Below are positions 57 through 43,616 of a stretch of DNA of 64,000 nt, piece after piece. The DNA comes from a virus. Position numbers and translations under genes: made by a program. Numbering within the stretch: the stretch's first letter is position 1; each line of letters begins with the position of its first letter. The notes under the pieces were generated by a model. It ran no database searches, was not told where the DNA came from, and saw only the letters and a list, made by a program, of their open reading frames with translations. The stretch covers positions 1-64,000 of IMG/VR virus record IMGVR_UViG_3300016667_000333, one strand, 5' to 3'.

Positions 57-296
57 TCATTTTCTTTTGATTACGATGACTTTTTGCTTTTTATTTCCAC
101 CGATTGGTTGCCTCTTCCATGCCATGTACTTTATGGGCAGGATGGTTGCAATCGTAAGGAAACATCCAACTGCACTTGCGTAGTTGTGTTGCACAATAGA
201 AAGTGCAAACGCAACCAAAAATGCAATCAAGAACGCTGTCAGCGTGATGTTGGGAAGCTCCAACATGTGGCGGAGAAATGATTTCTTTAGTTCCAA
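57..296 (-). CDS. Small membrane protein, function unknown
   Basis: 79-aa ORF with two hydrophobic segments (LTAFLIAFLVAFALSIV, VGCFLTIATILPI); TAnnTTTG box 61 nt upstream. Confidence 0.4.
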   Translation of the reverse strand: MELKKSFLRHMLELPNITLTAFLIAFLVAFALSIVQHNYASAVGCFLTIATILPIKYMAWKRQPIGGNKKQKVIVIKRK

Positions 297-432: not shown

Positions 433-711
433 TCAAAATATAGCCTCAAACTTTAACTTGTCGTACTCGTCTAGGTCAATCCGTTTGCCGTCAAACTTGC
501 CCCGATATGTGCAGTCCAGCACCTCGCACTCCCCATGGCTGTCCCAAGCTATTGCCATGGCGCGTATGTGCCTCTTTACGGACTCTATCGTGTTGAGGAC
601 CTCTGATGTTTGAAGCACCTCGTTGTTCTCCCCGATGGTTCTCACCCGGTATGCGTTTATCTTCTTGCCGTCAACCGTTCGACGTGCGTCTTTTATTTCA
701 ATTCTTCCCAT
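433..711 (-). CDS. YegP/DUF1508-like small protein
   Basis: 92 aa; YRVRTIGENNEVLQTSEVLNTIESVKRHIRAM resembles the YegP repeat pattern FRF.LKA.NGE.IL.SE.Y.....A..GI.SV. Confidence 0.45.
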   Translation of the reverse strand: MGRIEIKDARRTVDGKKINAYRVRTIGENNEVLQTSEVLNTIESVKRHIRAMAIAWDSHGECEVLDCTYRGKFDGKRIDLDEYDKLKFEAIF

Positions 712-7377: not shown

Positions 7378-9840
7378 ATGAAGTACGAATACTTAGAAGA
7401 GGATGATTTTGTTTCCTTTCACGAGGATGACGATGAGTTGGATACGATCCGTATTCCACTTCCGCGCCTTGAGAAGTGGTACTCTCACCATCTAAAACGA
7501 GAGGTTACCAGGGAAGAGGCGCTTACATACGTGGACGGTTATGGTCTTGCTCCAAAGGACCAAAAGTTTCAATACCAGGAGGTTCCGGAAAAGATAAAAT
7601 TGATTTACGAGGTTGTGTTCAATAAAAAACACGCAACCAACAAGTCTAAGTACAAGGAGGTAGGAGACGTCCGTCTTGAGGACATCTACGAGGAAATTGA
7701 GTCCAATCAAAAGTACTACGCCATGGAGATTGAGTGGATAAAGCTCCAAATAAAGCGCAGATACGTAGGTTACTGGTGTTTCATTAAAGGAAAGCCGGTA
7801 TATTTAAATGGAGCCAATTATTTCTTCCTAAACTTCTGGACAGTAAAGAACTTTGGTAAGAACAACAACCGACCCGACTACAGGGACTACCAGCGCAAGA
7901 TGTTTCATCTGTTCATGTACGCATATACCACAGAGGATGCGTTCTATAAACACAAGGTGTTGTACCGGGAAGATGGAGTGGTAAAAACAAAGTACTCAAA
8001 CCAGGACGTGAAGAACGTGGTGGAGGATATGAACGAGATGGGTGTAGAGTACTTCATGGAGCCAAACGTAAACGTGACCGTTGGAAAAGGTAAGCGAACT
8101 GTTCATGGAATTAACTTTGTTTCTGGACGACGTATCGCCAAGACAGCTATTGCTTGTTGCTTCTGCACGTGGGGAACCCTCAACATGCCCGACCAGACTT
8201 TTATCATCCAGGCGATGAACGAGGACCAGGCCGTCAACAAGATATTCATCAAACAAATTCAAACACCCGTAAGCAAACTTCCCTTCTTTTTTCGTCCTCA
8301 TTATCGTGGACGAATAGAGGCAAAGGAGGGTTTGCGTTTCCAGTATGAAGGAGCAATCGCATCAGCCGCAAGGGCAGGAATCGTCCCAGAACAAATGGAG
8401 TGCTTCATCACGCCACTCCCGTCGACGGAGAAAGCGGCGGATGGAGAGGCTGAAATCGCATTTGTCTACCGTGACGAGCCAGCGAAGAAAACGGATGCGA
8501 AGGCGGCGGACCAAAACATACCGACGTGGTGGTACAACACGATGAAACCAGCGATTGAGCGAGGAGAAAACATTCGAGGGTTCTGCATTATGCCTTCTAC
8601 GGTGGGTGACATGGACACAGGGGGTGGAGCGCAGTTCTTTGACATTGCTAACGACTCTCACTTCTCTGACAGAAACGAGAACGGAACTACTCCATCAGGA
8701 CTCATCAACTTTTTCTTACCGGGTTACTACGCGGTAGAGGGATACATTGACGAGTACGGGGCAAGCATTATTGATGACCCCAAGGAACCGGTAATGTCGA
8801 ACGAGGGCAAGTGGATTACCAGAGGGGCAAAGTCATACCTGCTAAACCAAGCAGACTACTTTGAACGTAAACGCGAGTGGCAGAAGTTAATCAAGTTGCA
8901 GCAAAACTTCCCAATGAGTTGGAAGCAAGCGTTTGCTGTAATACCAAAGGACATGGGTATGCCTATTGAGAAGATGCGTGACCGTATCTCGGAACTGAAG
9001 TTTTCTCGCACACCAATTAGTACAAAGATAAATTTTAAGTGGATTGGTGACAAGTTTGGAGGAGATGTTTATGTGGACAATGACCCCAAGGGAAGCTGGA
9101 CCATGACCTATCTTCCGCCACAAGAACAAAGAAACAGACGAACGGTTGTTACGGCCGAAGAGGGTTACATCCCTCCAAAAGAAAAAGGTCCGATTTACGC
9201 TCCCGATCCGTCGGTGATGAACAAGTACTTCCTCTGCTGTGACCCGGTTAAGTTTCACAAGCGAAATACAGTTGGTAAGAAGAAGTCGAATGCGGCAGCG
9301 GCTGTTTTTTACAAAAGAGACAGCCAGGTAGACCCCGATACCAAGCCAAGGAGTGAATGGGTAAGCAACGACTGGATTCTGGTATATAACAGACAGACAG
9401 AAGACAAGTCGGAGTACCACGAGGAGTGGCTGAAGGCTGCTATATTCCTTGGTGCATACGTATACCCGGAATGGCCCGATGGAGAAGCCTTGGTGGAATA
9501 CTTTAGGGACAACGGTTTCGATGGATACCTTTTGAAAGACATTGGATCAGAGGGTAAGCAAGACCCGCGCCCGGGCGTATGGGCAGGAGAAGCCGAGAAG
9601 AACGAAATGGCTGGAGACATCATGACGTTTTTTAACAACAATGTTAAATATGTGAAAATGTGGGAGATCATTGAGGAGTGGAGTCAGATGAGGGGTCTTG
9701 ATGACTTGACTAACCATGACTTGTGTGCCGCAACAGGGTGGTGCATGAGGGCTATAAAGAGCAGAATGCCAGATCTTTACAAGGAAGTTTATCAACCGAT
9801 AGAGATACAAGGAGGCTTCGCAATGTTTGACGTAGAATGA
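7378..9840 (+). CDS. Terminase large subunit
   Basis: 820 aa; deviant Walker A VSGRRIAKTAIA, Walker B AFVYRDEP, coupling motif IMPSTVG, nuclease-domain Asp in FLCCDPVKF; precedes the portal candidate. Confidence 0.7.
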   Translation: MKYEYLEEDDFVSFHEDDDELDTIRIPLPRLEKWYSHHLKREVTREEALTYVDGYGLAPKDQKFQYQEVPEKIKLIYEVVFNKKHATNKSKYKEVGDVRLEDIYEEIESNQKYYAMEIEWIKLQIKRRYVGYWCFIKGKPVYLNGANYFFLNFWTVKNFGKNNNRPDYRDYQRKMFHLFMYAYTTEDAFYKHKVLYREDGVVKTKYSNQDVKNVVEDMNEMGVEYFMEPNVNVTVGKGKRTVHGINFVSGRRIAKTAIACCFCTWGTLNMPDQTFIIQAMNEDQAVNKIFIKQIQTPVSKLPFFFRPHYRGRIEAKEGLRFQYEGAIASAARAGIVPEQMECFITPLPSTEKAADGEAEIAFVYRDEPAKKTDAKAADQNIPTWWYNTMKPAIERGENIRGFCIMPSTVGDMDTGGGAQFFDIANDSHFSDRNENGTTPSGLINFFLPGYYAVEGYIDEYGASIIDDPKEPVMSNEGKWITRGAKSYLLNQADYFERKREWQKLIKLQQNFPMSWKQAFAVIPKDMGMPIEKMRDRISELKFSRTPISTKINFKWIGDKFGGDVYVDNDPKGSWTMTYLPPQEQRNRRTVVTAEEGYIPPKEKGPIYAPDPSVMNKYFLCCDPVKFHKRNTVGKKKSNAAAAVFYKRDSQVDPDTKPRSEWVSNDWILVYNRQTEDKSEYHEEWLKAAIFLGAYVYPEWPDGEALVEYFRDNGFDGYLLKDIGSEGKQDPRPGVWAGEAEKNEMAGDIMTFFNNNVKYVKMWEIIEEWSQMRGLDDLTNHDLCAATGWCMRAIKSRMPDLYKEVYQPIEIQGGFAMFDVE

Positions 9841-9903: not shown

Positions 9904-12300
9904 ATGATATTGCCACAGATACTTGGCAGTATGTTGTTCCCAAACGACAACATACCCGAGGCTGATAAACTAAAGCCGGAGTTTGGATTACGTTGTGCGA
10001 GAGCTTTGTACACCCGCTTTTGTGCCGGGGGGGCATATTTTACATACAGTCAACTGCCTGAGATGCAGGAGACTAGAAACTATGGTGCCGGTAATCAATC
10101 CCAAGAAAAGTATAAAAACTGGTTTACAAACGGGTCCCCTATAGGTACAAGAGGGTTTGGCCAAGGGGATGGTGCAGCAACCACGAAGGGGTTAAGTAAG
10201 GCACAGAGAAAGGCGATGGCTAACATCAGCTACGACATTTTCTCTCCAATGCGAAAACTGTCGAATGTTCTTCTATCAATTCTTGCAGATAACGATTATA
10301 AACTTGACTGTGTTTCTCTTGATAAAAATATCGTCAATAAAAAGAAACGCAAAAAGTATGACGTCTACGCTAAAGCGAACTTTACAAATCCGCTTGCAAA
10401 AAAGCTAGGCTTACCAGAATTTAAGTTACCGTTTGTGCCAAAGGACGAGACGATGCTAGAAATGGCTGATCGCCTTGGTTTCTTTAAGACCAAATACGAG
10501 GTGGCTTTGGAAAAACTTGCCGAGGCTGGTTTTCGTTCGTCTAACTGGGCTGGGCAAAGAATGGAGTTTAATCGTGACGCGATTGACTTCCATTTCCGTG
10601 CAGCCAAGATTTATAACGACCCGATGACTGGACAGGTTAAGTTTCAATACGTTGACCCTGCCCGCATGGTCATGCTTTGGAACGAAGACAACCAAGAGGA
10701 GCCTGTTGCGATAGGTCACATTGAGGCCGAGACAGTGCAATCTATTTACGACAAGCTGATAGATGCTGGTTTCAACGAGGCGCAGATCCAGGCGATGGCA
10801 AAGTCATACGTTCCGTACCAAACGAACGTCTCTACTATTCCTCAGTGGGCATTTGAACGTAAAGACTCTACCACAAACCGTTGGGTATGGATGGACTTCA
10901 AGGTTTACGTGTTGAAGTTTGAATACCTTTCTACCGACTACAAGCAGTATGTAGAACGAGTAAACAAGCAGGGATATGGTAACTACATCCGAAACAATAG
11001 GCCGGTAGACGAAAAGAAAAAGAACCCAAACGATACCTACGATGAGGTGACTTGTAACTATTGGTACGAGGGTTCGTATATCATCTCCGGCACCGGCCAG
11101 GACCGTATTTATGAATGGAAGAAGAAGCCAAACCAGATGCAAAAGGGCTTGTCTCCAATGAGTTCGTATGTAATTCATCGCATCAACGGTCAGTCGCCTA
11201 CACGTAGCGTGAAGGGACTGCTTGACGACTTGATGTTTGCTGTATTGAAACTTCGCGCAGCCGTATGGGCTGCTGCCCCAAAGGGATATAGAATTGATGT
11301 CGGCGAGGCCGCTAACATCAAGATTGGAGGTGTAGAGTACGACCTGTTCGACCTCATGCATATCCACCGTCAGAACGGTATTCAGATTGTCGCAACTAAG
11401 TTCAACGCGGCGACCGGTAAATACGTGTCGCAGCCGCTTACAGAGATGGACAACGGTTTAGGTCCACAGGGACAGGAGTGGTTGGCCCAGATTGCGAACA
11501 TCCAGATGATGATCAAGGACCTCATGGGGATCCCGGACGCAATGGCCGCAAGCCCAGACCAGTCAGCAGAACGCTTGGTTGGAGTAATGGAGCAGGATTA
11601 TATCGCAGGAAACCACGCCAACTGGCCACTTCGCGAGTCTGAGCGTCAGTTCAAGCAGAAGCTCGGTGAGAGAATTATCCACCAGGCTCGGATAGACATT
11701 GAGTACGACCCTAAGATCCGCGAGTTTTATGAAAGCATTATTGGGGAGACTATGATAAACGCCCTTGACGACATTGAGGGCTTGTCGTTGGATCAGTTAG
11801 CAATTACATGCAAGGTTCTTCCAAATGAAAAGGAGAAGAGCGCTATCCTCCAGCGTGCCATGCAGATGTCTCAGATGCCGACCAAGGACGGCGCGGTTCT
11901 CCTAAGCCCTTCAAGCGTAGAGCGTGTAGCACAGCTTTTGAAGAACGGAGACGTGGACGAGGCCCTTTGGTTTATGGCCACGCAAGAGACAGAGGCTCGT
12001 CAACGTGAGCAGCAGTACTCTCAGATGATGTTGCAGCAGACAATTGAGGGCCAGCAGCAGACAGCGGCGATGACCGAAGAGGGCAAGCGACAGACCATGA
12101 TGCAGAAGATGCAGATGGAGATAGAGATGCACAGAGAGAAGGCTAACCTAGACCTCATGAAGGAGCAGCAGATTGCTAAAATTAAGTCAGATGCTGACTA
12201 CCAGGTTCAGTTGCTCAAGGGTCAGCAGGCGTTGGAAGAGATTAGCCTTGAGGCAAACCTTGAGGCCGAGTTAGGAAGTGAAATCACAGGCAGAATATAA
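9904..12300 (+). CDS. Portal protein (by size and synteny)
   Basis: 798 aa, follows the terminase; Q/E-rich coiled-coil C-terminus; no specific motif read. Confidence 0.55.
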   Translation: MILPQILGSMLFPNDNIPEADKLKPEFGLRCARALYTRFCAGGAYFTYSQLPEMQETRNYGAGNQSQEKYKNWFTNGSPIGTRGFGQGDGAATTKGLSKAQRKAMANISYDIFSPMRKLSNVLLSILADNDYKLDCVSLDKNIVNKKKRKKYDVYAKANFTNPLAKKLGLPEFKLPFVPKDETMLEMADRLGFFKTKYEVALEKLAEAGFRSSNWAGQRMEFNRDAIDFHFRAAKIYNDPMTGQVKFQYVDPARMVMLWNEDNQEEPVAIGHIEAETVQSIYDKLIDAGFNEAQIQAMAKSYVPYQTNVSTIPQWAFERKDSTTNRWVWMDFKVYVLKFEYLSTDYKQYVERVNKQGYGNYIRNNRPVDEKKKNPNDTYDEVTCNYWYEGSYIISGTGQDRIYEWKKKPNQMQKGLSPMSSYVIHRINGQSPTRSVKGLLDDLMFAVLKLRAAVWAAAPKGYRIDVGEAANIKIGGVEYDLFDLMHIHRQNGIQIVATKFNAATGKYVSQPLTEMDNGLGPQGQEWLAQIANIQMMIKDLMGIPDAMAASPDQSAERLVGVMEQDYIAGNHANWPLRESERQFKQKLGERIIHQARIDIEYDPKIREFYESIIGETMINALDDIEGLSLDQLAITCKVLPNEKEKSAILQRAMQMSQMPTKDGAVLLSPSSVERVAQLLKNGDVDEALWFMATQETEARQREQQYSQMMLQQTIEGQQQTAAMTEEGKRQTMMQKMQMEIEMHREKANLDLMKEQQIAKIKSDADYQVQLLKGQQALEEISLEANLEAELGSEITGRI

Positions 12301-18979: not shown

Positions 18980-19575
18980 TAACCAAGCGCCAAGCCATAG
19001 AACTAATACAGCACAGGTTGACTGGCGGGGACACCCCGGAAGACTTGCGCCGCTTGTATCCACGTTCAATCATCTCTCGGATATTGAACCTAGCCCTTGC
19101 CGACATTGTATCACGCGACCCTTACGAGGCAAGCGACATGGCGGTTCCCTACACGTTTACTCCTGCTACTGACGCCAACGGTTACTATGTGACCCTTCTC
19201 CCACAGCCAATCGCGGGGACAATGGCAATCTTTAGCGTAGAGGATGAGTCGTCGGGGTTTAACTCATACTCGGTTCAGACCAAGGCAGAGTCAACCGCAC
19301 TCAACGTGCTTCGTGGGGGAAACACCTCAGCGGCAGTTCTTTTTAAGGACAAGCTGCGTTTTAACAAACGCCCAGAAGGGAACGTGACAGTGACTATGGT
19401 CCCTAACGTGTACCAGATGGAAGACGACGACGTCTTGATTATCCCAAGCGATGAGACGGGTAAGGGCGAGACAATGCTGTTCCAGGCTTGTATGCAACTA
19501 CTCTCGACGCAAGGGTTCCAGGACGACTTGAATAACGATGCGATTGACGCTCAAAACATGGGGGCTAGACAATGA
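18976..19575 (+). CDS. Connector/tail-associated protein (position only)
   Basis: 199 aa; ATGA-coupled on both sides. Confidence 0.4.
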   Translation: MITKRQAIELIQHRLTGGDTPEDLRRLYPRSIISRILNLALADIVSRDPYEASDMAVPYTFTPATDANGYYVTLLPQPIAGTMAIFSVEDESSGFNSYSVQTKAESTALNVLRGGNTSAAVLFKDKLRFNKRPEGNVTVTMVPNVYQMEDDDVLIIPSDETGKGETMLFQACMQLLSTQGFQDDLNNDAIDAQNMGARQ

Positions 19576-20303
19576 CCATTAAGAACATAAAATACATCGC
19601 CACATCGGCTCTGTACCGCCTGGGTAAGAACCCGGCAGGTCGTGAGTTGACCTGGATGACGCAGGTGGCTATTGACTACTTGAGCGAGAAGTCTCCACTC
19701 GATGGCAACGTGTCCCTCAAGACAGTCTACGCAAAGATTGATACGGGCGCACGGGTGTTTACCATGCCCGGGGACTGCATGAGGATATCTAAGGTTGGCT
19801 TGAAGTCAGGACGTCGTATTTGGACGTTGACTCCAGACACCTCACTTACCTACCCGGAGGAGTTCTTCCAGTGCGAGAGCGATCAAAATGATGGGGTGGT
19901 GCTGGACGGATACTTCCCGACGGGGTACTTTGGATACTTTTACAACTACCCGAACTATACAGTGGGTGGTGGCCGAAACGAAAACTACTACCGCATAGAC
20001 GGTAACAACATCATTTTCAGCCACAACATCCCCGACGGCCAGCTCGTGATCGAGTACTTCTCAAACGGGTCATCTGTTGATGAGAACACTCTGATTGATG
20101 CCGGATATGCTGAGCCTTTCCGCTTGTACTTAATGAGCGAGTACTGCTTCCACAAAGGAAACAGCGAGGACAGGGCAAAGTACAAGGAACTACAGATGCA
20201 ATACGAGGCTGCCCAGTGGAGCGCAAACCTTTTGATTAAGGCTCCGCGACTCAGTGAAATGATTGACGCTCTTGCACAGAGCTCAGAATTTAATCTTGGA
20301 TAA
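19572..20303 (+). CDS. Connector/tail-associated protein (position only)
   Basis: 243 aa; ATGA-coupled upstream, TAATG overlap downstream. Confidence 0.4.
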   Translation: MTIKNIKYIATSALYRLGKNPAGRELTWMTQVAIDYLSEKSPLDGNVSLKTVYAKIDTGARVFTMPGDCMRISKVGLKSGRRIWTLTPDTSLTYPEEFFQCESDQNDGVVLDGYFPTGYFGYFYNYPNYTVGGGRNENYYRIDGNNIIFSHNIPDGQLVIEYFSNGSSVDENTLIDAGYAEPFRLYLMSEYCFHKGNSEDRAKYKELQMQYEAAQWSANLLIKAPRLSEMIDALAQSSEFNLG

Positions 20304-34826: not shown

Positions 34827-37800
34827 ATGGCAAAAGGCTGCGTATATATACCCAAGACCGGCAAGGATGCTGGCAAGGTGTTCGGATCTAAGGAGACACT
34901 TGCTGCGCATATGAACTACACCCCGGCGATGGCCGACGTTATGGCTAAGTATCAGCAGACAGGCGGTGCCATGGACGTGGGCAGTGTGACCAAGTGGCTC
35001 ACAGACAATGGGTATTTGAAGACTGAGGGTAAGGCCGCAAAGGCTGGAAAGCCTCAGACCGGCAAGACCAGCGAGAATGATGGCCAGAGACTTAGTAGCT
35101 TTAAGAAGGGCGACGTGGTCTACCGTAACTATAACGGCAGGTATGAGGAGTACACCATTGCGGACACTAGCAAGGATGTTTGGAAGCTGGTGTCACCCGA
35201 CGGAAGGGAAAGCACCTGGAACGCGGCCAATAACGGAGGTTTCATACTGAAGGAGACCAAGGCTGAGACCAAGCCAACAACAGCAGCTAAAGAAACTACT
35301 CTCGTTGATAAATGGGAAAAAGCAGGACTAGAAATTCTAAACAAGTATGGTGTAGAGAGGTTTACTGATTGGCTAAGTAATCAGCCATTGCTTAGTGAAG
35401 ATGGATTTTATGGAATTAGAGACATTGCCAACAAGTATGGAATCAAGTTTCCTCAAACTAAAAGAGAGTTTGATGCAGAGGTAAAGAAAAATGGAGGCAT
35501 TGACAATTACATGGGTTCAATGGCCGACACCTTCATGTCAAAGATGAAGCAGGCTCCGGTTGAAAAGAAACCAACTGTCAAGAAAGAGTTCCCAAAGGCC
35601 CCTGTCACAGACGCGGTAAAGGCAGCGCTCAAGAGCGTGGACAATACCACGGCGGCCATCATGAACCTGGCAAAGGTTCTCCCGACGGTATACGAGTCTA
35701 TTACCAAGCAGGTCAAGATAACCCTTGGCAAGCCTGTCTCACAGCAGGTGGCCGAGGCGTACCACAACGCGGTAGAGAACGGCGTGGAGCCAGAACTTGT
35801 AGCGGCGGTAGAGAACGCTGTAGCGTTACAGGAGCAGATGAAGTCCAAGCCAAGCCTTGCAGACAACATTGAGACCGCAGAGACCCTGGAAGTAGCGGGT
35901 GTTCCTAACGGAGTTCGGGTGAGTAACAAGTCGTCTCTGGCTGACCTGGAGCGCAAGCATGCAGGCAACGCCACTAAGAAGGCGACCATTGCCATGGCCC
36001 GTGCGGCAGCCAAGACTCTCAAGTCTGTGTTCCCGATGATGGACATCCACCTGCACGAGAACACTGCGGACTACAACAACGCCATGGCGAACCTAGGCGC
36101 ACAGCAGAACAGCGCGGGTAACTTTACATACAGCACCTCTTCCGATGGGACGGTGGTTGGTCGTATCGACATCAACCTAAACAGGGCCACCCCACGCACC
36201 GTTGTACACGAGGTGACACACGCCGTGTTGCTGAAGACCTTTGGCGACAGTTCGCCTGCCTTCCTTGAGTTCCGCAACAACCTCGAGAAGATAATATCAA
36301 AGTCCGGAAACAAGAGACTTTCAGACTTTGCTGACAAGTACAAAGACATTGCGGACGACATAGGCCAGGCTGAGGAATACCTTGCCGAGCTTGGCGGTAT
36401 ACTGTCCGACAAGGAAACTCCATTAGATTATGGACTGGTACGCCGCATTGCTGAGATGATCAACAAGGTCGTGTCTACCATAACCTTTGGTCGTCTCAAG
36501 CCATTTGAGGACTTGCAGAACCAGAAGGACACGCTTGAGTTCTTCAATACGATTGCACAAAGCATCAAGGCAGGTACCTCGCTTGAAAACCTTATGGTTG
36601 CCGAGCCATATAGCTCGTCAATAGCTTTTGAAGTTGATCCGGATGGAACCTTTACGAAGTCAAAAATCAAGACCAAAGCAGCAATAGGTGATTACATCAT
36701 ACCAAAGGGCAAGAAGGATTTGGCAATTGCTACCGTGCCCACAAAATCGCTTGCAGAAGTTATTAAGGAATACAACGGTCGTGTAGTAATTATTACTAGC
36801 GACGCTACTGGATACGGAGTGGACAGCAAAGGCCGTGAGATTTATGGTGGACCTGGGTTTGCAAACAACAAGAAAAATGTTGATGATAAAATAGGATTTG
36901 CAAGTTTGAATGTTGGAACGGTAAAATCCGTTTACACTTCTGCTGACAAGGCTTACGGCAAAGGCAAGACCCTTGTTTTAATTATGGTTCAACCACCGCA
37001 CACTACCATAAACAACTCGTATGGAACCCAATATTTCATGGAATCGCTTATTGACATTTCAAAAAATGCAAATTGGAATGAAATCAAGGCGGACATAGAG
37101 AGATTATTGAAAGAAAGCAAGGGTATAAGAAATAAATATCCAGAGAAGACAAGAGCTAGTGACGTTGATCGATTAGTGAAATTCTTTAAGAAAATTACTC
37201 CTAACTCAAATCCGGACGCTCTTACTAAAGAGTATCTTGACATAACAGGATTCCAGTCAAGATCTGCAATAGCTAAAACTTTTATACTTGATCAACCCAA
37301 CACCCGTATAAATGTGAAAAGCGCAAAAACCAAAAAAGCGTTTTTGGATAATGGGGTTACGATTTATGATTTTTTGAAGGAGTATGGTGATGACACCATA
37401 TTGACTGATGAAATGATGCGTAATAACGAGGGTGGATATGTTGTTGCTGGTTTCGAAATAGACGTTACAAGCAAGGCAGAAAGAGAGGCTTTAGTCGAGG
37501 AAATACAAGGAAAAGGAATTGAACACCCTTTGTTTAATGCTAAACTTCCAGGCACAAATCACTTCGTGCTTGATGGTTTGTATGACGTGAATGAGAATTT
37601 TGCTCAGTACGCAAAACCAAACATGGAAATTACTCTTCCCGACGAAGAGTTGAATCAAATCGTAAGAGAACAGTATCCAAGCGTTGATGACTATAAGGCT
37701 GAGGTTCGTAAAGAAGCCGATAAAATAAATAAAGACAAAACCCTAAGCGAAGAGGAAAAGCAAAAAGCGATTGAGGCATTGAAGATATACAAGTCATTGC

Positions 37801-39617
37801 CTGCTGCTAAAAAGATATCGCTTAAAGAAAACTATCTGTCAAAAATAGAAGGTGCTTTAGTTCCTGTTCAAGCCGACGTGGCAACAAGTGTAGCTGGAGG
37901 TAAAGGATTTGTTCCAATAAAAGGTGCTGCTAAAAAATTAAAAGAAGCCGAATATAAAAAATCCAGAGAACTTCCACCATCAAAAATTAAATCGAAGGCT
38001 CAGATATTCGGCGAGACAGGAGCTGCGAGGATGGAGAATGCTGAAAAGACACTCAACAACCTACAGGTGGCAAGGGACATGGAGGCCAAGTTTGAGAAAG
38101 AGGAGCGCACAATGACGTTCGTCGGCCCATCAAAGGCTACTGAAAACGCTCAGAAGATTAGGCTGGCCACTGGATGGGAGAGGGGTGCAGACGGTATGTG
38201 GAGATTGGAGATCCCAGACGGTCAGCTCAAGCCGATTGACCTTGACAACATGCTCAAGTATAACGATGAGATACCCTTTGCGTACCTTGACGAGATATAT
38301 GACTCCAAAGAGCTTTATGATGCATACCCGCTATCAAGGGATATACAAGTGATGTTTGTTGAGTCTGATGATTTCCGAGGATCTTACAACCACCAAGAAA
38401 AACGGATACAGCTTTCTATCAACCATTTTGACGAGCCGATAGACATGTTGTCTACCCTGCTGCATGAGGTTCAGCACTACATACAGTACGTAGAGGGTTT
38501 TGCCACAGGCGCAAACACGTCAACAATTGTAGACCAAATCAAGTTTGATTTATATCTAATAGATAAGCAGATAAAGGCGGTTAGGGAAAAAAGGGAAGAG
38601 CCTGGTGCGGATATTAGTGAGCTGCAAAAGGAACAGGAAACCCTTGAGTTTAAAAGCAGAAAGCTCAACCAGCAGGTGTCGAACCTCCTCAAGGATGCGC
38701 AAACCAAGATGAACGTCGAACTCAAAGGGCCTGATGAACAAAAGGCCTTTGTAGACATGGCACTAAAGGACAGTGATATAAGGAGGAGCCTGTACAAGAG
38801 GGCGGCTGGAGAGGTAGAGGCTAGGAACGTACAAAAGCGTATGGGCCTTAGTGAAGAGGAGCGCATGAATAAACTCCTGTCTTCAACAGAAGATGTCCTC
38901 AGAGGTGACCAATTGGTTTTGGGGGCCGCATTAAAAGGAGAGACACCAACGCTCAAGACTAAGGCTCAGATTGTTACGGTTGAACCTATTGATTTTGAAA
39001 ACGAATCAGAAAACATTGACGTATACGAGGCGTTTGAACAAGCAAGTAAAATAGCAAAAGATAATGGCGTAAACATTTTAAGGGGCAAGGAATTAAAAAG
39101 CGTTGCTTTAGATGATAACGGTAATGTTGTAGGTGGTTTATGGACTGAGATTAGTGGGGATGAGTTTTCATTTGATGTAGCGGTTGATAAATCAATGCAG
39201 GGCAAGGGCGTAGGTGAAAAACTAGTTAATGAAGCCATTTCGGAATTTAACGCTCAGAATTTTGAAGATCAATTAAAGTACAAGGTGGACGTCACTAATC
39301 CTGTAATGGAAAAGTTGTTGTCAAAGTATGGTTTTGAGGTTACAGAAAGGATTGACGGTCACACGATGATGGAACATCCTACCAACAATCCTAAACTAAT
39401 TCTCAAGACCAAGGCCCAGATGGTCGACAACAACGCCAAGCAGGTAGCCGACCTTTACGCCGAGATGCGTGAGGGTGGCGGATGGGCTGAGCGCCAAAAA
39501 ATAAACGCTATTTTGGACCAAGACCCCAAACTATCGTACATTTACAACAACTTTAAGGCTATCACTCAGATGCTTGAGGATGCCAAACTTTTAACGAAAT
39601 CCGGTAACTGTCCATGA
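34827..39617 (+). CDS. Polyvalent protein: two zincin (HExxH) modules, unknown central module, GNAT acetyltransferase module
   Basis: 1596 aa. First zincin motif VVHEVTHAVL at aa 461-465 (36207..36221). Second zincin motif LLHEVQHYIQYVEG at aa 1213-1217 (38463..38477), with downstream AGEVEARNVQKR. GNAT acetyl-CoA motif MQGKGVGEKL at aa 1457-1466 (39195..39224). The motif [IL]K[TS]KA[QA][IM] is repeated four times. Confidence 0.65.
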   Translation: MAKGCVYIPKTGKDAGKVFGSKETLAAHMNYTPAMADVMAKYQQTGGAMDVGSVTKWLTDNGYLKTEGKAAKAGKPQTGKTSENDGQRLSSFKKGDVVYRNYNGRYEEYTIADTSKDVWKLVSPDGRESTWNAANNGGFILKETKAETKPTTAAKETTLVDKWEKAGLEILNKYGVERFTDWLSNQPLLSEDGFYGIRDIANKYGIKFPQTKREFDAEVKKNGGIDNYMGSMADTFMSKMKQAPVEKKPTVKKEFPKAPVTDAVKAALKSVDNTTAAIMNLAKVLPTVYESITKQVKITLGKPVSQQVAEAYHNAVENGVEPELVAAVENAVALQEQMKSKPSLADNIETAETLEVAGVPNGVRVSNKSSLADLERKHAGNATKKATIAMARAAAKTLKSVFPMMDIHLHENTADYNNAMANLGAQQNSAGNFTYSTSSDGTVVGRIDINLNRATPRTVVHEVTHAVLLKTFGDSSPAFLEFRNNLEKIISKSGNKRLSDFADKYKDIADDIGQAEEYLAELGGILSDKETPLDYGLVRRIAEMINKVVSTITFGRLKPFEDLQNQKDTLEFFNTIAQSIKAGTSLENLMVAEPYSSSIAFEVDPDGTFTKSKIKTKAAIGDYIIPKGKKDLAIATVPTKSLAEVIKEYNGRVVIITSDATGYGVDSKGREIYGGPGFANNKKNVDDKIGFASLNVGTVKSVYTSADKAYGKGKTLVLIMVQPPHTTINNSYGTQYFMESLIDISKNANWNEIKADIERLLKESKGIRNKYPEKTRASDVDRLVKFFKKITPNSNPDALTKEYLDITGFQSRSAIAKTFILDQPNTRINVKSAKTKKAFLDNGVTIYDFLKEYGDDTILTDEMMRNNEGGYVVAGFEIDVTSKAEREALVEEIQGKGIEHPLFNAKLPGTNHFVLDGLYDVNENFAQYAKPNMEITLPDEELNQIVREQYPSVDDYKAEVRKEADKINKDKTLSEEEKQKAIEALKIYKSLPAAKKISLKENYLSKIEGALVPVQADVATSVAGGKGFVPIKGAAKKLKEAEYKKSRELPPSKIKSKAQIFGETGAARMENAEKTLNNLQVARDMEAKFEKEERTMTFVGPSKATENAQKIRLATGWERGADGMWRLEIPDGQLKPIDLDNMLKYNDEIPFAYLDEIYDSKELYDAYPLSRDIQVMFVESDDFRGSYNHQEKRIQLSINHFDEPIDMLSTLLHEVQHYIQYVEGFATGANTSTIVDQIKFDLYLIDKQIKAVREKREEPGADISELQKEQETLEFKSRKLNQQVSNLLKDAQTKMNVELKGPDEQKAFVDMALKDSDIRRSLYKRAAGEVEARNVQKRMGLSEEERMNKLLSSTEDVLRGDQLVLGAALKGETPTLKTKAQIVTVEPIDFENESENIDVYEAFEQASKIAKDNGVNILRGKELKSVALDDNGNVVGGLWTEISGDEFSFDVAVDKSMQGKGVGEKLVNEAISEFNAQNFEDQLKYKVDVTNPVMEKLLSKYGFEVTERIDGHTMMEHPTNNPKLILKTKAQMVDNNAKQVADLYAEMREGGGWAERQKINAILDQDPKLSYIYNNFKAITQMLEDAKLLTKSGNCP

Positions 39618-40105
39618 CACCAAACAAGTTAGATAAAGACGTAGTAGACCTACTGTTGCCTCGCCTCAAGGACGAGTACAACGCATTTTATTTTTACCGC
39701 GCAGCCAGCAACTGGTGCCAGGGCGTGGGTTACTTCAAGGCCGCAGAGTTCTTCGCAAAGGAGTCCGAGGATGAACTCGGTCACGCAAAGAAGATCGAGC
39801 AGTACCTCGTGGACTGGAACGTAGACCCAGAACTTCCCACCGTGGAGCGTCCACAGATTGTCTTCTCTGGCCTTATGGAGGTCATTGAGAACGCCTACAC
39901 GATTGAGTACGCGCTGTACGAAGACTACGAGGGAACCTCAAAGGAGATGTTCAAAAAAGACCTGTGCGTGTTTGACTTCCTACAGGAGTTCCGCATGCTA
40001 CAGAAGCAGTCAGTCGCCGAGTATAGCGACAAGCTCAACATGCTCGAGGGCGTGGACGGCAAGGACAAGTTCAAGTTACTTTTGCTAGAGAAAAAGTTAT
40101 TCTAA
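39614..40105 (+). CDS. Ferritin-like protein
   Basis: 163 aa. It aligns by eye with E. coli FtnA: KDEYNAF (E17 equivalent), ESEDELGHAKK (ExxH, E50/H53), TIEYALY (E94) and FLQEFRMLQKQSVAE (Q127 kept, E126/E129/E130 not clearly kept). It overlaps the polyvalent gene by ATGA. Confidence 0.75.
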   Translation: MTPNKLDKDVVDLLLPRLKDEYNAFYFYRAASNWCQGVGYFKAAEFFAKESEDELGHAKKIEQYLVDWNVDPELPTVERPQIVFSGLMEVIENAYTIEYALYEDYEGTSKEMFKKDLCVFDFLQEFRMLQKQSVAEYSDKLNMLEGVDGKDKFKLLLLEKKLF

Positions 40106-40109
40106 TTGA

Positions 40110-43100
40110 ATGGCAAAAAATCCCTGTAAGATATTCTTTAAGGACAAGCCAGGCGGCACCGCCACTGAGTATACCTATGACGAGTTCATGACGATGCTCA
40201 AGGACGAAGGCAAGCTCATGGACTTTATAAACCAGGGCCTACTGGACGAGGGGCGTATGCGCGGTGAGAACCCGTTCATCGCGGCCGAGCCACAGCCGGT
40301 AAGGCGTGTGGACCTCAAGACAATGGTCGGCAAGGGAAAGGCGCTCAAGACGTTGCTTGCCCGTGGGTTTATGGGCACAGACAGCGAGAGGCTGGCTACA
40401 GCTCTTCGTGAGACCGGGCTTGACAGGGACATTCAGAAGTTGACAGATGCCCGCGCCAGGGCGGAGCAGTTTGTGGAGAAGGTTGGCTTTGAGGCCGCCT
40501 ACCAGGCCGTTTCAGACCGGGCGATGAACGACGGTGTTGCCGCATACGTGTACGCAAACCTTATCGACAGGCTTGAGATGGCCCGCATGACCTCGCAGGA
40601 TGACAGCGGCATGAGCCCCGAAGAGTTTGTGGAGGCCCAGAACGAGCTGTACGAATTGCAGGCTAAGATGATGAACGAGTTCTCTGGCGTCGCAACCAGC
40701 TACGGCCAGTTCATAAACGCGCTCAGAGACATCTACCGCAACTCGCTGTTTAACTACAGTGTTGATAATCAGATAAATGAGTACAAGAAGGCGAACTTTG
40801 GCTACATCCCGAAGGAGGTAGAGGAGAAGTATCGCAGGCTCGACGAGGAGATTAAGGCGCTGAACGAGCGGATCACCGAGATGGAGAAGCGCACCAAGGA
40901 GGCAGAAGACGCAAGGAACCTGGCCGAGATAGAGCGTGCAGTTGCAGAGGACAAGATAGCAAACATTGACCTCAAGGACAGCACAAACGACGCTGCCGCA
41001 GAGGTGTTGAAGTTTAAGGCCAAGTCCGTGTCGTTCAAGGACGCAAGCGGCAAGCCGATAAACGTGCCCAAGCAGTCTTGGGAGAAGATAGTAGAGGCCG
41101 CAGCTAACGCGGTAAGGAACCTAAAGACCAAGCCGTCGCTTATCAGCAAGGCAAGCCTGTCCGGCTCCGCTTCTAACACGGCATTAAACGCGGCACTGGC
41201 CGCTGTACGTAACGAGCCATGGTTCCAGGCGCTAAGCAGCGCGGACAAGAGGGCTGTAGAGGACCAGATACGCGCACAGTTCCAGAGCACAACCCCCGGA
41301 AAAATATCGATACCGTCAAGCCTTATTCGCGAGATAGTAGAGAGCGGCGTGTTCAGCATGGATGACCTTGTGCGCAGGGTGAAGGAGGAGGTTGCTAAGA
41401 AGTACCCAAACGCTACAGACCGCCAGATACGTGACGCTATTAGCGGATACGGTCGTGAGCGTTCCATGACCCAGTCCGATATACAGAAGGAGATTGCAAG
41501 GCTTCGCAACATAGCCCGCATGGTGTCAAGGCTTGAGGACATCCAGGCCGGGAAGATTAAGGCCAAGACTCCGCAGGAGAGGTTTAGACTGACCGAGAAA
41601 GAGGCCCAGCTGAAGATGGACATACAGGACGCATACGAGGCGGCCGGCATTGGCGACGCACAGCGTCTGATCAACGCCAAGGAGAACGCCAAGAAGCGTA
41701 TCGCAGAACTAGAACGCAGGCTTGACGAGAAGGACTTTAGCAAGCAGGAGCGCAAGAAGGTTAAGGAGGACGAAGAGTTGGCTCAGCTACGTGCCGAGCG
41801 ACAGACCCTACAGAACCAGTTTGACAAAGAGCTCGACAAGATTAAGAAGCAGAACAGCCCTACCAAGTTTTGGGACGGCCTTGGAGGCTTCTGGGAGATA
41901 GCCCGTCTGTTACAGGCCACCTTTGACTTGTCTATGGTGCTCGTGCAGGGATTGAAGTTGACCGTTTCTCACCCGGTGTATTCAGCCAGGGCTTTTTATA
42001 AAACATTCCAGCACTTTACAAGCGAGAGTAAGGCGCGTAAGTGGGGGGAGTATATCAAGGCCCAAGATTATTACGAAGAGATGATGAAGGCGGGCTTGTC
42101 TTTGTCTGAGTATGACGCGTCGCTTTCTGAAAAAGAGGAAGGGTTCTTAGGTGGAGTGGGTAACATAATGTGGGACTACCTCGTGTTGCCCTTCAAGATG
42201 TTTGGCGACAAGGGCTACACCCGGGCCGCCCAGGCAAACCCGTTCAAGGCTTTTGAACGTGCGGGTATTGCATACCTAAACACCATGCGTGTGCTTCGAT
42301 ACCTGGACGGGAAGACCATGCTTGAGAGTAAGAAGCGCGGGATGTCGTTTGAAACCGATCCAGACTCTTACAAGGCCGTTGCCAACATGGTGAACAGCTT
42401 CACGGGCCGTTCGTCACTTGGCCCACTGGAAAAGAATGCCGGGCTGCTTTCAAAGATATTTTACTCGCCAAAGAACTGGGCGTCTCAGTTAAAGACGTCA
42501 ACCATCGGCTTCCCTATATTTCTTTTGACGTTAAAGGACAAGGGCACATGGGAGCCTTCTGTAGCACAGAAGATGGCTGTACGCGACTGGATTGTGTGGT
42601 TTGCAGTCACAGCAGGAATTGTAAGGATGATTGCGGAAAAGGCCAACGAGGACGACGAGGACGAGATCGAGGTTGACATGAACCCGCTCAGCTCCAGGTT
42701 TGGAAAGATCCGCATAGGCAACGTGTACGTAGACCCGTGGGGCGGATTTATCCAGCACATCGTTTTACAGGCCCGTCTTTACAATGAGGCCATGGTGCGT
42801 GGTGGAGAAGAGAAAAAGCTAGGAGATTATAACACTCCTACACGCGGCGGGTTGATTGCAGAGTTTGCTAAAAACAAGCTGCACCCGACCGCTAGTCTTA
42901 TGGTTGGATACCTTACCACGCATGAGGAGGATGGCAAGCGCGTAGACGCGTATGGTAACGACTTTATCTGGAGGGACGAGATACAGGAGCGTGTTGTTCC
43001 TATGATCGGTAGTACTCTTGTTGAAATATTCAAAGAGGAGCCCAACCTCAAGGGGGCGTTCCTTGGCGCATATGCGTTCCTTGGTGCCGGTGTTAACGTG

Positions 43101-43616
43101 TACAAGAACGAGAAGGTGGCTCCTAAGTTCGACAGCCCAGAGACTGCGGGCATGATGAAGGAGTTCAAGCCTAAGGGCTTACCAGACATCAAGAAGGACA
43201 CGTTCGCGGTACCGCTCTCAGACGAGGAGTTGATACAGCTGAACGTAAACTACCGCAAGAAGGCCACGGCACTGCTCGACATGTATTCGGCCACCAAGCC
43301 AGCAGAGGACGAGTATATGCAGACAGACAAGTTCAAGAGGCTCACCGACAATCAGTTAGAAGAGGCTCGGGCAGAGGCCGTCAAGAAGGGTGTACCGGAA
43401 GCAGAGCTCGACAAGGAGTCTGAACGCATTGCACTTGAGAAGAAAAAGAAGGAAAGAATATCTGATAACATAAGCGAGCTGACCACATTGGCTAAGAACG
43501 CTGCTGCTTACGAGTACTTCAAGGCACTCGGGAAGCGCATCCCGCCTACGATTGAAGAATCGGTCAAGGAATACGAAAAAAAGATGGCCGATTTACAAAA
43601 AGAATTGAACCAATAA
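40110..43616 (+). CDS. Giant coiled-coil / membrane-segment protein, ejection-protein candidate
   Basis: 1168 aa; long K/E-rich coiled coils; hydrophobic segments (FWEIARLLQATFDLSMVLVQGL, WIVWFAVTAGIVRMIA, AFLGAYAFLGAGV). Confidence 0.45.
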   Translation: MAKNPCKIFFKDKPGGTATEYTYDEFMTMLKDEGKLMDFINQGLLDEGRMRGENPFIAAEPQPVRRVDLKTMVGKGKALKTLLARGFMGTDSERLATALRETGLDRDIQKLTDARARAEQFVEKVGFEAAYQAVSDRAMNDGVAAYVYANLIDRLEMARMTSQDDSGMSPEEFVEAQNELYELQAKMMNEFSGVATSYGQFINALRDIYRNSLFNYSVDNQINEYKKANFGYIPKEVEEKYRRLDEEIKALNERITEMEKRTKEAEDARNLAEIERAVAEDKIANIDLKDSTNDAAAEVLKFKAKSVSFKDASGKPINVPKQSWEKIVEAAANAVRNLKTKPSLISKASLSGSASNTALNAALAAVRNEPWFQALSSADKRAVEDQIRAQFQSTTPGKISIPSSLIREIVESGVFSMDDLVRRVKEEVAKKYPNATDRQIRDAISGYGRERSMTQSDIQKEIARLRNIARMVSRLEDIQAGKIKAKTPQERFRLTEKEAQLKMDIQDAYEAAGIGDAQRLINAKENAKKRIAELERRLDEKDFSKQERKKVKEDEELAQLRAERQTLQNQFDKELDKIKKQNSPTKFWDGLGGFWEIARLLQATFDLSMVLVQGLKLTVSHPVYSARAFYKTFQHFTSESKARKWGEYIKAQDYYEEMMKAGLSLSEYDASLSEKEEGFLGGVGNIMWDYLVLPFKMFGDKGYTRAAQANPFKAFERAGIAYLNTMRVLRYLDGKTMLESKKRGMSFETDPDSYKAVANMVNSFTGRSSLGPLEKNAGLLSKIFYSPKNWASQLKTSTIGFPIFLLTLKDKGTWEPSVAQKMAVRDWIVWFAVTAGIVRMIAEKANEDDEDEIEVDMNPLSSRFGKIRIGNVYVDPWGGFIQHIVLQARLYNEAMVRGGEEKKLGDYNTPTRGGLIAEFAKNKLHPTASLMVGYLTTHEEDGKRVDAYGNDFIWRDEIQERVVPMIGSTLVEIFKEEPNLKGAFLGAYAFLGAGVNVYKNEKVAPKFDSPETAGMMKEFKPKGLPDIKKDTFAVPLSDEELIQLNVNYRKKATALLDMYSATKPAEDEYMQTDKFKRLTDNQLEEARAEAVKKGVPEAELDKESERIALEKKKKERISDNISELTTLAKNAAAYEYFKALGKRIPPTIEESVKEYEKKMADLQKELNQ

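Follow-up and report, generated by a model that had tools for sequence, protein, structure and literature searches.

A heptapeptide motif at the cassette boundaries of a phage polyvalent protein as a putative processing site

Proteins that are cut at short recurring sites are known from several systems. The prohead proteases of phages trim at consensus sites such as L/I-x-E (gp21 of T4) and S/A/G-x-E (gp175 of phiKZ), and DdrB of P1 is processed as well. In the MARTX toxins of Vibrio, an internal cysteine protease domain reportedly cuts the linkers between effectors, which is said to go back to work by Satchell and co-workers and by Shen et al. in 2009. For polyvalent proteins, which are among the largest and commonest unexplored phage proteins, autoprocessing by embedded zincin peptidases has been predicted (Iyer et al., 2017, J Bacteriol, PMC5512222). 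In the years since 2017, no cleavage site has become known to go with this idea, and our literature search found no defined cleavage sites in polyvalent proteins. Here, we describe a candidate for such a site and a protease that may be its counterpart, which make the idea testable, in a viral DNA stretch of 64,000 nucleotides (nt; positions 1 to 64,000 of the IMG/VR record IMGVR_UViG_3300016667_000333, referred to as the window in the following). The heptad [IL]K[TS]KA[QA][IM] recurs in an open reading frame (ORF) of 1596 amino acids (aa), and we consider it, with a probability of roughly 0.55, to mark putative sites at which the conserved first zincin of this protein (HEVTH) would cut exchangeable cassettes free.

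Judged from its sequence, the ORF product is a polyvalent protein as defined by Iyer et al. (2017), i.e. one that combines at least two unrelated enzymatic or effector domains in a phage context: LPD23 (PF18838, 30.2 bits, cut-off 27), which is one of the large polyvalent protein-associated domains (LPDs) of this class, a second zincin (HEVQH) and a GNAT acetyltransferase stand in a single ORF, with terminase and portal genes in the same window. Its parts are listed below (HSP, high-scoring segment pair in BLAST; pLDDT, predicted local distance difference test score; q, residue of the query).

34827..39617, +: gene of the proposed polyvalent effector polyprotein (1596-aa ORF; Pfam LPD23, SprT-like zincin below cut-off, GNAT; homologues P0001-P0042)
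34827..35837, +: N-terminal segment (BLAST HSPs; module cluster 2)
35838..35858, +: fifth, proline-containing copy MKSKPSL (site 0), aa 338-344; kept in all close homologues; low pLDDT
35859..36665, +: first (HEVTH) zincin segment; invariant columns, HExxH and EE..EL, predicted helices after a three-stranded sheet
36666..36686, +: putative site 1, IKTKAAI, aa 614-620
36687..37985, +: cassette between sites 1 and 2 (from module clustering; no Pfam match; poorly modelled)
37986..38006, +: putative site 2, IKSKAQI, aa 1054-1060; HSP ends at q1054-1067; proline-rich upstream flank
38007..38951, +: cassette of LPD23 (30.2 bits) and second zincin (SprT-like, 22.9 bits; HEVQH at 38463..38477), aa 1061-1375; optional, module cluster 4
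38952..38972, +: putative site 3, LKTKAQI, aa 1376-1382; end of a coil with pLDDT<50
38973..39401, +: cassette of the GNAT acetyltransferase, aa 1383-1525; Pfam Acetyltransf_7, Acetyltransf_1 and Acetyltransf_10; Foldseek matches to RimI, TacT and other GNATs, E 2e-5
39402..39422, +: putative site 4, LKTKAQM, aa 1526-1532; segment with pLDDT<50; exact starting point (q1526) of nine HSPs
39423..39614, +: helical 'handle' of 64 aa at the C-terminus, with ...KSGNCP as its last residues

The four strict copies lie exactly where an earlier note on this DNA had placed them, and HEVTH (aa 461) and HEVQH (aa 1213) fall in the pieces to which it had assigned them. At the composition of this protein, about 2.5e-4 copies would be expected by chance, as against the 4 to 5 seen; of 20000 shuffles, 19996 contained no copy, four contained one, and none contained two or more. 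Neither the strict nor a slightly looser form occurs again in the six frames of the window, and even with proline variants included, the motif is confined to two genes, those of the 1596-aa and 1168-aa ORFs. The copy MKSKPSL (aa 338) precedes the first zincin (HEVTH, aa 461).

A homologue search over 5.8 billion proteins yielded 42 relatives (P0001-P0042). Of these, 17 are close, with 46-92% identity in the shared parts, and each carries 2 to 5 strict copies; together with the query, P0022 and P0035, they hold 53. Both lysines and the alanine are invariant, position six is a glutamine in 41/50 unique copies, and position -2 is a proline in 24/50. With a relaxed pattern, further variants appear at true junctions (KSKPQL, KSKSQV, MRSKAQL, IASKAQL and IANKAQI), KSKPQL doing so in P0010, P0012 and P0017. 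Tandem copies are spaced by 6 to 22 aa. In P0004 (aa 982-1003), P0015 (aa 1124-1146) and P0017 (aa 805-827), a short piece of 22 aa (the motif plus AINEYEEAPASEKPx) spans the distance from one copy to its successor and resembles what is left of a lost cassette, or a spacer.

The proposal of the earlier note that the motifs delimit modules is borne out by these relatives, in which the motif is conserved and homology break points fall on it. When 18 related proteins are split at the motif, the pieces are clean cassettes that have been reshuffled, and in the 17 close homologues a motif stands at every boundary between shuffled cassettes. These comprise LPD23 with the second zincin, two GNAT types, an ADP-ribosyltransferase (ART-PolyVal), a phosphoribosyltransferase-like type and several unassigned types. 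Their order differs between proteins (e.g. 4|3 in P0002 and 3|4 in P0003), such that 90 junctions represent 34 distinct ordered module pairs, whereas the C-terminal handle and its motif always measure exactly 71 aa. Internal BLAST HSP ends lie at most 12 aa from a motif in 25 of 59 cases, as against 4.6 expected (p about 5e-13). Since the same heptad stands at the start of unrelated folds, it is a linear motif rather than a fold element.

An AlphaFold2 model of aa 1040-1596 (24 aligned sequences, mean pLDDT 70.6) places motifs 3 and 4 in predicted linkers rather than inside folded domains. Both end coils with pLDDT<50 (model residues 311-340 and 482-493) and directly precede the point at which the confidently predicted secondary structure of the next domain begins; the last residues of motif 3 open the first GNAT strand, those of motif 4 the first helix of the C-terminal domain. 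The piece between them, previously assigned to GNAT by its size, does contain this domain at aa 1421-1507 (PF13508, 30.8 bits, cut-off 27; PF00583, 29.1 bits, cut-off 20.7; Foldseek GNAT matches at E 2e-5, probability 1.00).

The first zincin has a wider distribution, with 685 representative clusters in a library of 1.84 billion proteins. HExxH and EE..EL are at least 80% conserved in 147 domains, and the Pfam MPTase-PolyVal and SprT-like zincin profiles give no match at the curated threshold. In the model of the first zincin (mean pLDDT 49.7), HEVTH lies in helix 227-245 and the invariant EEYLAEL in helix 286-298, from which the zinc-binding glutamate is not distinguishable; a Foldseek search with this model gave no match at E<=0.001, and anthrax lethal factor (~0.7) and MATCAP (~0.55) appeared only among noise. 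In this wider family, the core [ST][KR][AS][QS][ILMVF] occurs 179 times, as against 26.3±5.6 in shuffles. It is absent upstream of the zincin and maximal directly after it, with peaks at +100..200 and +450..600 relative to the HExxH histidine. The motif logo reads Φ-K-S-K-[SA]-[QS]-Φ, inter-site distances are mostly 140-600 aa, and proteins of different 50%-identity clusters share the conserved peptide core. P0134 (3760 aa), whose gene adjoins one with a crAss muzzle domain, has a complete C5 DNA methylase (Pfam, 1443-1744) between TKSQL at 1432 and MKSKSQL at 1753, and a nucleotidyltransferase (1812-1892) between the sites at 1753 and 1929.

Cleavage by the first zincin would free the cassettes as separate proteins, i.e. 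the second zincin with LPD23 and the GNAT, and in relatives also the ADP-ribosyltransferase, the phosphoribosyltransferase-like protein, the DNA methylase and the nucleotidyltransferase. They would be set free in the assembled capsid or, once ejected, in the host. Many gluzincins favour a hydrophobic P1' residue; given this preference and the points at which confident domains begin, the scissile bond is most likely Q/S↓Φ. The cutting itself, the responsible enzyme, the bond and the timing are all what we infer from sequence. If this holds, the motif would provide a sequence rule for dividing thousands of giant metagenomic proteins into effector units, among them DNA methylases, ADP-ribosyltransferases, acetyltransferases and other anti-defence enzymes.

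A further candidate substrate, which would be cut in trans, is the product of the 1168-aa ORF; the earlier note had seen no motif in the other giant proteins, which proved wrong for this one.

41121..41162, +: double motif LKTKPSL+ISKASL, aa 338-351 of the 1168-aa ORF (40110..43616); conserved in orthologues

The double motif behaves as a 13-aa insertion and is missing in the distant homologue P0196. N-terminal homology between this ORF product and the polyvalent protein was considered and rejected, as only a local match of 21 aa around the site was found (E 0.28).

Other explanations of the motif have to be weighed against cleavage by the first zincin. It might be a non-proteolytic short linear motif at cassette starts, for example a docking or packaging signal, a register for translocation during ejection or a linker cap, with the protein staying intact. 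The N4 virion RNA polymerase, ArdC and TraC1 offer precedents, as they hold zincin domains and yet are transferred at full length (PMC5512222), and the basic K-x-K could bind DNA or an acidic channel. We nonetheless think this unlikely: there is no obvious reason for a docking signal at every domain boundary, and such a signal would not predict the motif's absence upstream of the zincin and its maximum right after it. A rather unlikely explanation, too, is that the motif is cut by another protease, either a prohead protease or the second zincin. Phage head proteases such as T4 gp21 and phiKZ gp175 do trim internal proteins at short motifs, and the presence of the motif in a second protein of the virion module is what one would expect of a trans-acting enzyme. 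However, Pfam and PHROGs searches of the 23 plus-strand ORFs of the window reveal no prohead or head-maturation protease, and the motif is absent from the portal, the other head/tail-block ORFs between the portal and the giants, and the other giants, i.e. all ORFs but the 1596-aa and 1168-aa ones; neither a protease gene in the structural module nor a copy of this site in a capsid or scaffold protein was found. The HEVQH/LPD23 zincin, in turn, is an optional cassette, missing in 8 motif-bearing homologues (P0006, P0007, P0011 and P0013-P0017). The processing sites envisaged in the earlier note, to be cut by a head protease or either zincin, are supported in part, as to the modules that the motif delimits, and narrowed to the first zincin as the candidate enzyme.

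The motif could also be a mere recombination junction at the DNA level, a micro-homology for cassette swaps that plays no part in the protein. Cassette shuffling at the motif is evident, and copies 2-4 form the best direct-repeat family in the gene. Their nucleotide similarity, already remarked on in the earlier note, is real; yet it is modest, at 67-80% identity over 30 nt with a longest exact run of about 8 nt. Seventeen copies from four genomes make use of all four alanine codons and of five serine codons (TCN and AGC), and their hydrophobic positions vary between I, L and V, while the other amino acids remain fixed; in close homologues, the motif is retained with synonymous codon drift. 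The N-terminal part of the protein is a mosaic, too (break points at aa 76-273), but without any motif, and the 1168-aa ORF has the motif without cassette shuffling. Codon variety, low DNA identity and motif-free N-terminal mosaicism argue for selection on the peptide, as does the core kept between different 50%-identity clusters, and we regard a pure DNA junction as highly improbable. Some points speak against our preferred explanation. In the motif, AAG and CAG codons show a mild excess, as a DNA junction would have it, so some DNA-level constraint is possible; for sites 0, 1 and 2, linker evidence is weak, given the poor model of module 2 as a whole (mean pLDDT 49.7); and the sequence clusters are not phylogenetically independent.

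Two other candidate roles were rejected. Internal translation starts at the motif do not fit its last codon, which is ATA, ATT, ATC, CTN, TTA or GTN as often as ATG, and the identity over 30 nt is too low for long DNA repeats or shufflon-like sites. Independently of the peptide motif, a DNA-level near-copy of its core (AGACCAAGGCTGAGA) lies at 35254..35268 of the window (about aa 143-148) in the low-complexity N-terminal linker LKETKAETKP; its translation, ETKAET, does not match the peptide motif, and homologue break points cluster close by (aa 142-166).

The window covers the structural module of a podophage-like genome, in which the following genes surround the polyvalent protein.

7378..9840: large terminase
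9904..12300: portal
19572..20303: SU10-type adaptor
39614..40105, +: ferritin/Dps-like gene, 163 aa (Pfam Ferritin, E 1.4e-19), overlapping the polyvalent stop codon (ATGA)

The giant ORFs form a series of 1434, 1846, 1596, 1168 and 1379 aa, after which a CHAP lysin follows. The portal shares about 22% identity with its counterparts in Pachyviridae (Cellulophaga phages phi18:3 and phi46:3) and in Elemovirus (Flavobacterium phages). No close relative was found among 50,697 phage records, and no cultured phage was found to carry the motif; the homologous contigs are metagenomic assemblies of 65-70 kb with unchanged gene order. A ferritin-like protein within a block of virion proteins is unusual. 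Its gene occupies this place in every related contig and at the distant locus L007 as well, flanked by the polyvalent-position gene and the 1168-aa ORF homologue.

Several known systems share features with this locus. The internal and ejection proteins of T4, phiKZ and P1 are packaged in the capsid and cut at a short consensus before or after packaging, but the enzyme is a dedicated head protease with capsid and scaffold proteins among its substrates, whereas here neither such a protease nor the motif in head proteins is detectable. The polyproteins processed by picornavirus 3C and potyvirus NIa resemble the proposed arrangement in having an embedded protease, a heptad at each junction, and a cut in cis at the protease's own boundary before cuts in trans; however, their proteases and biology are unrelated, and they yield replication machinery, while the cargo here would be delivered effectors. 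With the polyvalent proteins described previously (PMC5512222), our protein shares its giant multidomain nature, a gene beside virion genes, and the LPD23, zincin and GNAT domains, joined in relatives by ART-PolyVal, DNA methylase and Polβ nucleotidyltransferase. It differs in that no cleavage motif was defined there, while a specific heptad stands at every junction here, arranged in a polar fashion C-terminal to the first zincin. MARTX toxins have features of their own, namely a cysteine protease that is activated by inositol hexakisphosphate (InsP6) and cuts after leucine, secretion as bacterial toxins and glycine-rich repeats; Pfam domains for an InsP6-dependent cysteine protease or glycine-rich repeats are absent from the 1596-aa protein, which instead has a zincin as candidate protease, ΦKSK[AS]QΦ as its putative site, a phage particle as presumed carrier and bacteria as presumed target. 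By analogy alone and without homology, MARTX is nevertheless the closest functional analogue: a giant polypeptide with a variable, recombining set of effectors between conserved end regions, an embedded protease and short recurring linker sites, whose effectors are freed in the target cell, as we propose for the cassettes described here.
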